Numbered from the stretch's first letter, positions 30,572-34,527 are shown. The stretch: DNA of 42,537 bases from a virus (UHGV-0420230); one strand, 5' to 3'. Program-made: numbers and translations. Notes: a model not told the origin generated them from the letters alone.

Positions 30572-31225
30572 TCAAAAATCCATTATTACTTGTTTGACAA
30601 GACCAACTATTCTGCAGTTCTCACCGCATTCAATAGTTTTATAGTTAGGATTTAGTGGGACGAGATACCTGTTCGGCCAGTCCTCAACAAATTTTTTGAG
30701 TGTCGCTTCTTGCCCACCATTGATATGGGCAACAACGATTTTTCCGTTAATACACTCTGTATCAATAATATCTGGCTCTACGATAACGATAGAACCTTCT
30801 GGTATCGATGGTGAGCCGAGGGGATTGGTCATTGAATCACCACGGACCCGTAGTGCAAATGCCATTTCTGATACAAGGGCGGTAGTATAAACCCACTCTT
30901 CAGCATCTTCTTTCCTGACACCAGGCTCCGTCATTGTCCATGAACCCGCCTGAACCCACGAGATGAGGGGGACTTTTTTAACTGCGAATATTTCAGGTTT
31001 TAGATTTATCTTTGGTTCAGGCGAGCCTTTTCCGCTAACAAGCCACAGAGGATCGCATTTAAGTGCGTTGGCTAGGGCTTGAAGGTTGGCTCCATTTGGT
31101 TGGTAGTCGTCCTTTTCCCATCCAGTAACCGTGACACGGTTCACACCAGTCAAATCAGCCAGTGCTTGTTGTGTCAGGTTCAGTTCTTTTCGCCTTTGGC
31201 GAATACGATCACTCATGTTCATCAT
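30572..31225 (-). CDS. CI-like repressor (HTH plus S24 LexA-like peptidase domain)
   Basis: N-terminal HTH (LTQQALADLTGVNRVTVTGWE); C-terminal RGDSM...K motif of self-cleaving repressors; divergent from the Cro-like gene. Confidence 0.85.
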   Translation of the reverse strand: MMNMSDRIRQRRKELNLTQQALADLTGVNRVTVTGWEKDDYQPNGANLQALANALKCDPLWLVSGKGSPEPKINLKPEIFAVKKVPLISWVQAGSWTMTEPGVRKEDAEEWVYTTALVSEMAFALRVRGDSMTNPLGSPSIPEGSIVIVEPDIIDTECINGKIVVAHINGGQEATLKKFVEDWPNRYLVPLNPNYKTIECGENCRIVGLVKQVIMDF

Positions 31226-31288
31226 GTAGGCAATCCTACCACATGCCCATGTAGGATTCTTGACATTGGTATGTTGGATATCCTACAT
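31224..31288 (+). promoter_or_regulatory. OR-type tripartite operator with rightward early promoter (pR-like)
   Basis: Three related palindromes at 31224-31241, 31248-31265 and 31271-31288 (the last exactly the reverse complement of OL1), spaced 23-24 bp; TTGACA 31260-31265. Confidence 0.6.
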
Positions 31289-31320
31289 TTCTGCTTAACG
31301 TAATTTAACGGGAGACAGAA

Positions 31321-31518
31321 ATGCGGAAATCCGACGTGATTAATTATTTCGGCGGAGTTTGTAAAACCGCCGAAGCCCTAGGTATTAAGCATCCGTCTGT
31401 TTCAGAGTGGCCTGAGATTATTCCTGAAGGCCGAGCGTACCAGTTAGAAAAAATTACTAACGGGAAACTGAAAGTTGACGTGTCTTTATATCAAAAGACT
31501 AACAGTGCTGCGGCATAA
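31321..31518 (+). CDS. Cro-like regulator
   Basis: 65 aa small HTH protein divergent from the repressor; GGGAGA RBS. Confidence 0.7.
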   Translation: MRKSDVINYFGGVCKTAEALGIKHPSVSEWPEIIPEGRAYQLEKITNGKLKVDVSLYQKTNSAAA

Positions 31519-31545: not shown

Positions 31546-32130
31546 GTGGGTAAAGAACCTGAATGGAAAGTTGATAAACAACCAGCATGGCTGGTGGCAG
31601 CAATACGAAGAACGATTGCTGATTTACCTCATGGCTATGAGGAAGCAGCAGAAATTCTTGGTTTGTATAAATCTGATGATATCACCCCAGCAAAAGATCA
31701 ATTGCATAACAGACTGCGTAGCGGTGGGGATCAAATTTTTCCACTTGAGTGGGCCATGGTTTTACAGGATGCCAGTGGTACCAGGCATGTAACAGATGCA
31801 ATAGCCCGTCGTAGTAATGGGGTGTTTGTGCCGCTGGTGGTCATTGATGACATTGACAATGGTGACATTAATCAGCGGCTGATGGAGTCAATAGAATGGA
31901 TTGGCAAGCATTCCCGGTACTTACGCAAGGCAACTGCTGATGGAGTTATTGACCAAGCTGAGCGTGAGCAAATCGAAGAGAACAGCTACCAAGTAATGGC
32001 GAAGTGGCAGGAGCATTTAACACTGTTATTTCGTGTTTTTTGTGCGCCGGAAAAGAGTAACGCCCGCGAGTGTGCAGCTCCGGGCGTCGTGGCGTCGATT
32101 GCTTCTGGTTGTGGAGAAACTAACGCATGA
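31546..32130 (+). CDS. YmfL/CII-like early regulatory protein (hypothetical)
   Basis: 194 aa following Cro; GTG start with GAGGAA RBS; assignment by position and size only. Confidence 0.5.
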
Positions 32131-32465
32131 ACAGTTTAACAACACACTACCGTCGCTCGCAACTGATTGCGCTTCCTGTACCGGGTGGAAAAGCGAAGGT
32201 GGAGTATTGCTATGCAGTGAATGTACCAGGTGACAGGGAAATTGTAACCCACAGCTTTGCAGAGTGGGCTGTGGGTGATTTCAACCGGCAGAAGGAGACA
32301 GTCCTTTGCAACAAGTTAACCGCTGGTTCAAAGATCACTACGGAGTGCCCGTCAGAGTCATTCGTTGGGAGCCGGAAACACAACGGGTTATCTACCTCCG
32401 TGAAGGCTATGAACATGAATGCTTCAGTCCGCTCGAACAGTTTCGTCGTAAATTCAGGGAAATAG
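32127..32465 (+). CDS. hypothetical protein (YmfM-like by size and position)
   Basis: 112 aa; ATGA overlap with upstream gene; 3' half overlaps an alternative frame. Confidence 0.4.
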
Positions 32466-32497
32466 AGGTCGGTCATGAGCAAACCAGTAATGATTGA
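32306..32497 (+). CDS. hypothetical protein, TTG start (alternative overlapping frame)
   Basis: AGGAG at 32293-32297 precedes TTG 32306; product more protein-like than the overlapping frame; stop overlaps the Rha start. Confidence 0.4.
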
Positions 32498-33317
32498 TTC
32501 TGATAATTCTGAGCGTTATATTGTTCTGGCAGCGGCAAAATCCGTTGCCGGGATTGGCGTCCCGGAATTTTCCACAGCGCACAACCGCGCTAAAGCGGTT
32601 TTTTTGTGTGCAATGCACGGCTACATCCAGATTATGGTGGGCCGGGCAGGGGCATCGAAAGATGCGCCGGTATCTGTGGAAGCCGGTTACGCCAACCCTG
32701 TTCGGTTCACCACCAGTCAGATTGGCGTCTGTGGTGGTGATTGTCCAAATCATTCCACAGGGGCTGTCGTGATGACTACTATCCCAACCCTCGCACAACC
32801 TGAAATTACGGTTATCAACGGCCTGGCCGTTACTTCTTCCCTAGCTATTGCCGACTACTTCGCCAAGCGTCATGACGATGTACTGAAAAAGATCCGCACG
32901 CTTGAATGCTCAGCATCATTCACTGCCCGCAATTTTTCGGTGAGTGATTACACTGATTGCACAGGTCGCAAACTTCCTTGCTACCAAATCACACGCGACG
33001 GTTTTGCGTTTCTTGCTATGGGTTTCACGGGTAAACGTGCTGCCCAGTTCAAAGAGGCATACATCAATGCCTTTAACCAGATGGAGAAACAGCTTTCAAA
33101 GCCCTCTGTACCGAGCGACGTTGCACATAACGCCAGCGTTCTCTGTTCCTACATTTCATCAATTCATCAGGTCTGGTTGCAGCAGCTTTATCCCATGCTG
33201 GAAAAAGCTGAATCACCGCTGGCTGTAAGTCTGTATGACCGAATTAACGATGCGGCATTTCTTGCCCGTCTTATTCATTCGTCGCTGAACTCTTCAGAGG
33301 TAAGGGGGCGCAAATGA
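32475..33317 (+). CDS. Rha-family phage regulatory protein
   Basis: ITVINGLAVTSSLAIADYFAKRHDDVLKKIRTL...ITRDGFAFLAMGFTGKRAAQFKEAYINAFNQME resembles the Rha domain. Confidence 0.7.
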   Translation: MSKPVMIDSDNSERYIVLAAAKSVAGIGVPEFSTAHNRAKAVFLCAMHGYIQIMVGRAGASKDAPVSVEAGYANPVRFTTSQIGVCGGDCPNHSTGAVVMTTIPTLAQPEITVINGLAVTSSLAIADYFAKRHDDVLKKIRTLECSASFTARNFSVSDYTDCTGRKLPCYQITRDGFAFLAMGFTGKRAAQFKEAYINAFNQMEKQLSKPSVPSDVAHNASVLCSYISSIHQVWLQQLYPMLEKAESPLAVSLYDRINDAAFLARLIHSSLNSSEVRGRK

Positions 33318-33538
33318 TCCGGAATATTTTCAAACGATTTACCAATCAGACTTTCCGTTGTCCTCGCCCCGGTCAGTGGTACACCACGCCTGCAGGGCAT
33401 GTTCTACGTGTTAGCCTGGTTGACCGTGAATGCCAGAAGGTGATTTGTGAACCGCTGGGCCGTAATTACCGCGTCAGTATGCCGCTTATAGCCTTTCGCT
33501 CCGGAAAAAACATGAAGCATCTCGGAGGTGCGGCATGA
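33314..33538 (+). CDS. hypothetical protein
   Basis: 74-aa ORF with overlapping start and stop codons in the early-right operon. Confidence 0.45.
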   Translation: MIRNIFKRFTNQTFRCPRPGQWYTTPAGHVLRVSLVDRECQKVICEPLGRNYRVSMPLIAFRSGKNMKHLGGAA

Positions 33539-34527
33539 GCCTGTTAATGACATCCCAGCCCATTGTGATAAATCGTGATCTTGCATGCCGTATTGGTCTG
33601 AATGAGGCAATTGTGTTGCAGCAGCTTCATTACTGGCTGAATGAAACGAATTCAGGCACTGAGCATGGCGGAATTCGCTGGGTTTATAACACGACAGAAC
33701 AGTGGCTGGAGCAGTTTCCGTTCTGGTCAGAGTCCACTCTGAAACGCACATTTGCAAGCCTGAAATCACTTGGGGTTTTGCGTCGCGAGAAACTCAATAA
33801 ATCGAAGCGTGACATGACCAACTTCTACACGATCAACTATGAAAGTGAGCTTTTAGAAGAGGTCAAAGTGAACGAATCCATCAGGTCAAAATGCACCTCT
33901 CCATCGGGTCAAAGTGACCTGATGGATGAGCGCAAAATGACACGATCCATTGGTTCAAAACGACACGCTGTCATCGGGTCAAAATGGCCCAATGATCTTA
34001 CAGAGAATACAACAGAGATTACTACAGAGAATAAAACCTCTTCTCGTCCGGACGCTTCGCAACCGGACACGCAGATGGCTGAACAGGATTTTTTAACTCG
34101 CCATCCTGATGCGGTTGTATTCAGCCCTAAAAAGCGCCAGTGGGGAACGCAGGATGATTTGACCTGCGCACAGTGGCTCTGGAAAAAAATCATCGCTCTG
34201 TACGAGCAGGCCGCCGAATGTGACGGCGAAGTGGTACGTCCTAAAGAACCGAACTGGACAGCCTGGGCAAACGAAATTCGCCTGATGTGTGTACAGGATG
34301 GGCGTACTCACAAACAAATCTGCGAGATGTACAGCCGCGTCAGCCGCGATCCGTTCTGGTGCCGTAACGTGCTCAGCCCGTCGAAGCTGCGGGAAAAATG
34401 GGATGAGCTTTCCCTGCGCTTATCGCCGTCCGTCAGCACGTACACAGAAAAACGCGAAGACCCGTACTTCAAAGCCAGTTACGACAATGTGGACTACAGC
34501 CAGATCCCGGCAGGATTCAGGGGGTGA
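33535..34527 (+). CDS. replication initiation protein (O-like, with DnaT-like C-terminal domain)
   Basis: 330 aa; N-terminal winged-helix-like region, C-terminal ...NWTAWANEIRLMCVQDGRTHKQICEMYSRVSRDPFW...; iterons embedded in the gene. Confidence 0.7.
   Translation: MSLLMTSQPIVINRDLACRIGLNEAIVLQQLHYWLNETNSGTEHGGIRWVYNTTEQWLEQFPFWSESTLKRTFASLKSLGVLRREKLNKSKRDMTNFYTINYESELLEEVKVNESIRSKCTSPSGQSDLMDERKMTRSIGSKRHAVIGSKWPNDLTENTTEITTENKTSSRPDASQPDTQMAEQDFLTRHPDAVVFSPKKRQWGTQDDLTCAQWLWKKIIALYEQAAECDGEVVRPKEPNWTAWANEIRLMCVQDGRTHKQICEMYSRVSRDPFWCRNVLSPSKLREKWDELSLRLSPSVSTYTEKREDPYFKASYDNVDYSQIPAGFRG
33855..33990. repeat. origin iterons inside the replication initiator gene
   Basis: Five copies of GGTCAAA(A/G)TG-like core (33861, 33884, 33907, 33952, 33977) spaced about 23 bp, several preceded by TCCATC. 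Confidence 0.6.

Follow-up and report, generated by a model that had tools for sequence, protein, structure and literature searches.

Two open reading frames (ORFs) that share 160 nucleotides (nt) in different frames of the same strand were analysed in a viral genome, UHGV-0420230, the whole 42,537-nt stretch of which is called the window below. ORF A (32127-32465, plus strand) encodes a 112-amino-acid (aa) protein of the YmfM family, and ORF B (32306-32497, plus strand) encodes a 63-aa DUF4222 protein from a TTG start, identical to a RefSeq coding sequence (CDS). The two are probably a real same-strand overlapping gene pair, in which ORF B is translated from a start of its own and ORF A consists of an N-terminal domain followed by a tail, read from ORF B in its +1 frame, which is kept open and ends at a conserved stop codon. 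Both frames are conserved in divergent relatives, the start codon of ORF B holds its place among them, stop codons are avoided in frame A, and the same two genes occur in several other architectures.

ORF A begins at an ATG that shares the bases ATGA (32127-32130) with the TGA stop codon of the upstream ymfL-like gene, 9 nt 3′ of a Shine-Dalgarno (SD)-like GGAGA motif (32113-32117, plus strand). Its codons 1 to about 58 form the conserved N-domain, and codons 61-112 form the tail. The offset between the two starts, (32306-32127) mod 3 = 2, places ORF B in the -1 frame of ORF A, with the overlap extending from 32306 to 32465. On reading the sequence, an SD motif AAGGAG (32292-32297, plus strand) lies 8 nt 5′ of the TTG of ORF B. 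The TAG stop codon of ORF A (32463-32465, plus strand) is made of an isoleucine codon ATA of ORF B and the G of the following codon, and ends 9 nt 5′ of the ATG of the next gene, which encodes an Ash-Rha regulator and is in the same frame as ORF A.

The preliminary description of this region, made from the sequence alone and ending at the last base of ORF B (32497), had noted a 112-aa ORF coupled by ATGA to a CII-like gene, an overlap of about 160 nt with a -1-frame ORF, and a ribosome-binding site and TTG start for the latter. All of these are confirmed, the overlap being exactly 160 nt, and the more protein-like composition ascribed to ORF B is borne out by its Pfam match. A true overlapping gene pair was one of three explanations that it offered and is the one supported here, both frames being open in 47/47 loci; the codon-usage and conservation analysis of both frames in relatives that it proposed was carried out and found both to be conserved as open frames, with stop codons avoided in frame A.

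Conservation of the two reading frames

A scan of one genome per species yielded 44 loci in which the DUF4222 protein is 62-92% identical at the amino acid level, from genera that include Escherichia, Shigella, Citrobacter, Enterobacter, Kosakonia, Kluyvera, Leclercia, Atlantibacter, Pantoea and Phytobacter. These loci, with three phage loci and the window, make up the inspected set of 47, which covers about ten enterobacterial genera. Frame A is open for at least 108 codons in 47/47 loci, always in the same register relative to ORF B, and in each of them its stop codon has the same position, about 20 nt short of where ORF B ends; the third sense frame contains a mean of 3.7 stop codons (37 clusters). 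Both frames are open in divergent relatives to an extent above what codon-preserving null models produce, as detailed below. At closer range, about 2,000 of 5,426 complete genomes of E. coli carry the DNA of this region with at least 95% identity.

The DUF4222 protein of ORF B

ORF B scored 67.5 bits against the Pfam model of DUF4222 (PF13973), for which the gathering cut-off is 27, with residues 2-53 aligned to profile positions 3-52 of 53; it also matches phrog_1343, and is a full-length member of this family, annotated as such by RefSeq. Its start codon falls in one alignment column in 60/60 unique sequences, as TTG (29), ATG (28) or GTG (3), and a purine run resembling GGAG or GAGG is found 5′ of the start in other lineages too. 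ORF B would thus appear to be initiated independently, from its own SD motif and start codon. Within the overlap, the ratio of nonsynonymous to synonymous substitution rates (dN/dS, Nei-Gojobori method) is 0.06-0.08 in the frame of ORF B, which is under strong purifying selection. The AlphaFold2 model, built like that of ORF A from alignments of database proteins only, is a barrel of five strands with a short helix and a predicted local distance difference test score (pLDDT) of 80. Foldseek comparison of the model with the PDB returned generic SH3, KOW and Tudor barrels (best E 0.01), and the protein is predicted to be a small SH3/KOW-like beta-barrel. Profile searches with ORF A and ORF B against PDB sequences gave no match, and a search of NCBIfam gave no model matching either.

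The YmfM protein of ORF A

ORF A corresponds to phrog_1170 over its full length (1-112 of 112, E 3.4e-69) and belongs to no Pfam family. It is 99% identical to a database cluster of 1,295 members (P0029), and 331 clusters at 90% identity match it, those listed being mostly 108-116 aa long. By full-length similarity and by its place directly after a YmfL/CII-like gene with an ATGA overlap, ORF A is YmfM of the e14 prophage, the protein reported as the SOS-inducible division inhibitor SfiC. The e14 ymfM gene (b1148, sfiC) likewise has 112 codons and follows ymfL with an ATGA overlap. At two e14-type loci of E. coli (L007, L009) the N-domain is identical to that of ORF A and five differences all fall in the tail. 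The e14-type context is ymfK/ymfT/ymfL (as in L006); downstream, e14 has a remnant of oweE, whereas the window has the Ash-Rha gene instead.

The start of ORF A is preceded by GGAGA(A/T)ACTAACGC-ATGA or a close variant in 45/45 loci with a recognisable start, which is ATG except for GTG in two loci and mostly overlaps the ymfL stop codon as ATGA. The N-terminal part is homologous yet divergent in 47/47 loci (MNSL..PQLR..PVPG..NHS..VG), with a dN/dS of 0.26 over the non-overlapping part (about 55 aa) in the well-aligned type-2 group. The tail (about 52 aa) gave an apparent dN/dS of 2-2.9 when the overlap was read in frame A, so that within the overlap purifying selection on amino acids was found in frame B and not in frame A. 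The AlphaFold2 model of ORF A is moderately confident only over residues 10-51 (pLDDT 66-77), residues 52-112 scoring about 30; disorder is predicted for the tail, whose amino acid sequence is not conserved and whose composition is biased, rich in serine, threonine, alanine and glycine. The invariant Leu-Cys of ORF A is the start codon of ORF B read in frame A. ORF A is accordingly a small conserved domain with a tail that is kept open yet free in sequence.

Other architectures and the probable origin of the long form

Distant relatives were sought by tblastn of phage records and by a second scan of viral contigs, and 216 loci were classified with hidden Markov models. Frame A is joined to the +1 frame of ORF B and stops before the end of ORF B at 159 of these loci; it continues past ORF B at 20, ORF A is short and separate at 21, and no ORF A was detected at 16. 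Across the whole YmfM family, the listed clusters at 50% identity comprise about 45 short forms (43-78 aa, N-domain only), about 31 long forms (104-125 aa) and several fused forms (190-820 aa).

In Yersinia phage YeP2 (L135, MK733260), a 166-nt "intergenic" gap contains an unannotated gene (1010-1171) for a 53-aa homologue of the YmfM N-domain, whose TGA stop codon overlaps the ATG of the DUF4222 gene (ATGA, within GTATGAC). This stop codon aligns with Cys61 of the long form (..CRKWGRV* versus ..YRKAKRLC), and the junction codon is thus TGA in the short form and an invariant TGC in the long form. The alignment suggests that ORF A was extended over ORF B by loss of its stop codon, and such a loss (TGA to TGC at the junction) is the probable origin of the long form, the direction of the change being read from the taxonomic spread of the short forms and not from a rooted phylogeny.

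In Providencia-type phages (L134, L137-L144), ORF A encodes 58-70 aa, and an ATG in the +1 frame of ORF B shares bases with the stop codon of ORF A or directly adjoins it (ccaATGAag, TAATGA/TAATG, TGATGA/TGATG). This ATG opens an ORF of about 55 codons that is embedded in ORF B and runs almost to its end; the ATG of ORF B itself is 7 nt upstream. Three reading frames meet here within about 10 nt (the ATG of ORF B, the stop codon of ORF A and the ATG of the +1 frame), and the product of the +1 ORF would begin MKMLIISIAF..., a hydrophobic N-terminus. Hafnia phage yong2 has a 59-aa A gene and a 275-aa gene inserted between A and B. Frame A lacks a stop codon in SfV (L131, orf37), ST64B (L132, sb41) and several Stx phages, where it continues into Ash or Ash-Rha; the CDSs annotated there encode 278 and 385 aa. 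Near the junction in the SfV type, the Ash-Rha reading frame showed no ATG, and its regulator may be a fusion of ORF A, tail and Ash, or may be made from a non-ATG start.

Avoidance of stop codons in frame A

For a stop codon to arise in frame A, a purine must follow an NTA or NTG codon of ORF B (a "danger" codon). When ORF B was randomised synonymously according to local codon usage, frame A remained open in 1-11% of trials per sequence, whereas it is open in the real sequences of all 18 clusters at no more than 85% nt identity. NTN codons of ORF B that precede A or G have A or G in the third position in 1/278 cases, compared with 77/272 in safe contexts, where the next base is C or T. For example, the valine at codon 16 of ORF B is encoded by GTC whenever the next arginine codon is AGR, and by GTG, GTA or GTT only before CGN. 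The terminal stop codon of ORF A is made in all sequences listed from an ATA, TTA or GTA codon of ORF B followed by A or G, despite changes among isoleucine, leucine and valine at this site, where the expected frequency of ATA is about 0.06. When substitutions were counted by parsimony on a neighbour-joining tree, none of 20 third-position changes at uniformly dangerous sites was to A or G, versus 6/14 at safe sites (P ~1e-5 to 3e-4, with a control rate of 6/14 from safe sites or 18/53 from safe and mixed sites). Selection keeps frame A open and its stop codon in place.

A rival explanation is that only ORF B and the N-domain of ORF A are functional, the 52-codon tail being a tolerated read-through that is open by shared ancestry and because few positions can become stop codons. 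The apparent dN/dS and predicted disorder of the tail accord with this, as does the greater diversity of the short stand-alone homologues of ORF A, and in a stricter test, permutation of codons within each gene, frame A stays open with a probability of 0.06-1.0 per cluster and typically of about 0.3, which is not small. On the other side, all 40 clusters in which ORF A is joined to the +1 frame of ORF B are open, 0/20 substitutions at danger sites create stop codons compared with 6/14 at safe sites, the choice at codon 16 of ORF B varies with the base that follows it, the stop codon of ORF A has been rebuilt from rare NTA codons across amino acid replacements, and the SfV type has no visible ATG near the junction from which Ash-Rha could be translated separately. 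We consider a merely tolerated tail unlikely.

Several observations weigh against the overlapping pair, some of them by favouring a tolerated tail. On an IMG/VR contig (L065, 2563366891_000011, about 1510-1515), a change of GTT to GTA that is silent in ORF B creates TAA at codon 64 of ORF A and truncates YmfM to 63 aa, the sole exception to the openness of frame A; phrog_20047, of 63 aa, matches such a truncated form. The tail is thus not indispensable. Third positions of ORF B at conserved residues are about as variable as those of the O gene (1.02 versus 1.07 bits), and no extra constraint on synonymous sites of ORF B was found in general, the exceptions being N5 (AAC in 37/38) and V28 (GTT in 43/44); apart from these two sites no amino acid constraint is detectable in the tail of ORF A. 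Among 19 lineages that lack a joined ORF A, 12 also have an open +1 frame over ORF B, where about 2.6 would be expected; this frame is closed in Elizabethkingia and some others. Its openness may therefore stem in part from something other than the tail, such as a separate coupled +1 ORF of the Providencia type or an unknown bias. TTG is a weak start codon for ORF B in the lineage of the window, and it is from sequence evolution that both frames are predicted to be translated.

If ORF A and ORF B are an overlapping pair, ORF A would encode a small accessory protein: translation would start by ATGA coupling at the stop codon of ymfL, cross ORF B in the +1 frame over about 52 codons and terminate 9 nt 5′ of the start codon that follows. 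Ribosomes engaged on ymfL and ORF A could in this way be carried to the start of the next cistron by termination-reinitiation coupling, and the conserved stop codon of ORF A would prevent an in-frame fusion of ORF A to Rha or to the O-like protein. In such a scheme loss of the stop codon at the A/B junction would have come first, after which selection may have kept the extended frame open and its new stop codon just before the next cistron.

Recoding, single-gene and split-gene explanations

Recoding, the third explanation in the preliminary description, would consist of a programmed -1 frameshift or transcriptional slippage that fuses the N-domain of ORF A to DUF4222 in a protein of about 120 aa. 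ORF B is in the -1 frame of ORF A in every joined lineage, an SD-like AAGGAG lies within the junction, and loci of the SfIV type contain a run of five G residues (G5), with one G6 assembly encoding exactly such a fusion. A search of 91 sequences for a conserved slippery heptamer in frame A that lands in an open frame B nevertheless found none: X_XXY_YYZ heptamers occur each in 1-3/91 sequences at differing positions, and none is present in the window or in the representative loci shown. In the window, a TGA (32276-32278) closes the -1 frame, and the sequence GGGTG stands where an unbroken G run would be needed; several lineages have frame B closed 0-2 codons 5′ of its ATG; the start codon of ORF B is conserved at a fixed column with an SD-like run; and the fusions found in databases have few members and switch frame at differing positions. 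Recoding is very unlikely on these grounds. A +1 shift like that of prfB, at CTT_T after the SD motif, was also considered and rejected, since the +1 frame, inspected by eye, reaches a stop codon three codons on (GCA ACA AGT TAA).

Each annotation tradition calls just one of the two frames, as would be expected if only one were a gene, either YmfM with a spurious ORF B (phage records) or ORF B alone (RefSeq). Against the former, ORF B has a curated Pfam family, a dN/dS of 0.06-0.08 and a confidently predicted fold; against the latter, the N-domain of ORF A has a dN/dS of 0.26, a conserved SD motif and ATG(A), and stand-alone homologues annotated in Hafnia and Providencia phages. It is extremely unlikely that either frame is spurious.

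That a frameshift mutation or sequencing error split one ancestral gene, as the preliminary description had also allowed, is refuted. A few database proteins (P0001-P0005, P0024) do span the two halves as one ORF, but their switch points differ from one to the next, in the manner of indel errors; the region is carried by about 2,000 complete E. coli genomes, the two-frame arrangement is kept at all divergent loci inspected (47/47), and A and B are separate genes in distant relatives. The preliminary description had named a single uninterrupted gene in related phages as the sign of such an error. When a large protein collection was queried with an artificial fusion of residues 1-59 of ORF A to ORF B, the one-ORF forms recovered were few, sporadic and of low membership, derived from Logan/ENA assemblies, and varied in their switch points; they were set aside as indel errors and not taken as a natural A-B gene, a pseudogene or a sign of misassembly in the window. 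The best supported of them (P0002, 119 aa; L217, Logan ERR8650983 contig 91, 1645-1655) has one extra G relative to the G5 run of SfIV (L002) at codons 49-50 of ORF A, which may come from a sequencing error or may mark a frameshift mutant that is natural but rare.

Genomic neighbourhood

The setting of the pair is the early rightward operon of an e14/SfIV-like lambdoid prophage: cro, ymfL, A/B, Rha and an O-like gene. The lambdoid immunity and early-right region (30.5-34.5 kb) opens with a cI/LexA-like repressor gene on the minus strand (30572-31225), followed by a pR-like promoter (31260-31289; TTGACA, 18 nt, TACATT) and, 3′ of it, a P22-Cro-like gene (31321-31518). The next gene (31546-32130, plus strand) encodes a 194-aa CII-like regulator of the YmfL family (PF06892, 29.3 bits; NCBIfam phage_reg_YmfL, 179.6 bits; phrog_101, CII-like activator).

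Downstream of the pair, the Ash-Rha regulator gene (32475-33317, plus strand; PF10554 and PF09669) encodes 280 aa from the ATG at 32475. This start is ambiguous: the longest ORF begins there (MSKPVMIDS...), and RefSeq uses the second ATG, at 32490 (MIDS...). In a comparison with 32000-32600 as the query, similarity to e14-, SfIV- and mEp460_4F5-like phages ended at about 32481/32482 (query position 482), a few bases past the Ash-Rha ATG. This edge looks like a mosaic joint at the conserved GGTCATGAGC; 3′ of it the window has the Ash-Rha module, whereas in most relatives the O-like gene follows at once.

A 74-aa ORF (33314-33535; phrog_1153) lies between the Rha gene and the O-like replication gene (33535-34527), sharing 4 nt with each neighbour (ATGA in the case of Rha). 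Its similarity to DUF4222 is weak (ORF B versus phrog_1153, E 8e-7; hhalign, E 0.02), and its candidacy as a DUF4222 paralogue was set aside on account of this weak support. The window may hold two distant copies of a DUF4222-like small gene, each just 5′ of the start of another gene.

On the minus strand, a 90-aa ORF (32210-32482) is codon-aligned antisense to ORF B and open in 33/37 clusters. It was rejected as a gene and is regarded as a by-product of the codon usage of ORF B: its stop codons require TTA, CTA or TCA, which ORF B rarely uses, and it is closed in the rest of the 37 clusters. The record of a Klebsiella phage (MK416017; L003, 1707-1994) annotates the equivalent antisense ORF as a CDS, probably a mis-call.

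Annotation and published phenotype

In the RefSeq genomes of E. coli for which rows were listed, only the DUF4222 ORF is annotated, from the same TTG, which leaves a 175-nt "intergenic" gap over the N-domain of ORF A (1532-1706 in L005 and L006, corresponding to 32127-32305 of the window). In the GenBank records of phages that were inspected, only the 112-aa ORF is annotated, as "YmfM" or as a hypothetical protein. Each tradition thereby omits one conserved gene, on the RefSeq side in thousands of genomes. In the papers searched, no mention was found of the A/B overlap nor of a conserved +1 frame covering DUF4222 along nearly its entire length, and DUF4222 does not appear in the title or abstract of those among them that mention it. 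As an overlapping gene pair the locus looks ordinary, but it is undescribed.

In the literature on E. coli K-12, ymfM is cited as sfiC, a division inhibitor that had long been sought. Ansari et al. (bioRxiv 10.1101/2020.11.19.390815) reported that the K-12 ymfM ORF in pBAD24 caused filamentation and loss of the Z-ring, and also used a ymfM deletion; the text treats one gene and mentions no second frame, stop-codon mutant or frameshift mutant. Earlier screens, predating that study, had recovered larger fragments that contain both frames. By our reading of the coordinates, the K-12 ymfM clone includes, besides ymfM, the SD motif, the start codon and about 53 of 59 codons of ORF B, and the deletion removes both frames. 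Because the clone carries both, either product, A or B, may be responsible for the SfiC phenotype.

A tentative proposal, to which we give appreciably less than even credence, is that the phenotype attributed to YmfM stems from the embedded DUF4222 protein or needs it and that, separately, the +1 frame across DUF4222 is a conserved "relay" selected for its translation and not for its product. On such a proposal the relay may be fused to ORF A (Escherichia type), form a separate ATGA-coupled cistron (Providencia type) or be fused onward to Ash-Rha (SfV type).

Comparison with known systems

The overlapping pair of ORF A and ORF B bears on a published assignment of gene function as well as on genome annotation. 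It also offers a traceable case of a gene lengthened through the alternative frame of its neighbour, with separated, coupled, joined and further-fused forms surviving in relatives. Extension of a C-terminus by loss of a stop codon and overprinting is a general mechanism (PMC8227390). The tail of ORF A resembles an alternative-frame reading of a pre-existing gene in its biased composition, its predicted disorder and the TGA/TGC correspondence at the junction; the direction of the change at the A/B junction, loss or gain of the stop codon, is judged from taxonomic spread.

The spanin genes Rz and Rz1 of phage lambda are a familiar overlapping pair, in which Rz1 lies in the +1 frame inside Rz, and in related phages the two are embedded, overlapped or separated. 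ORF A and ORF B are likewise out of frame on the same strand, the inner gene has its own start, and joined, coupled and separated variants occur in relatives. The likeness involves no relation of sequence or function. Unlike in Rz/Rz1, the inner gene is the strongly conserved one and the overprinted part is the unconstrained tail of ORF A, not a second folded protein, which gives the pair its unusual signature of a frame that is held open while its sequence is free to vary.

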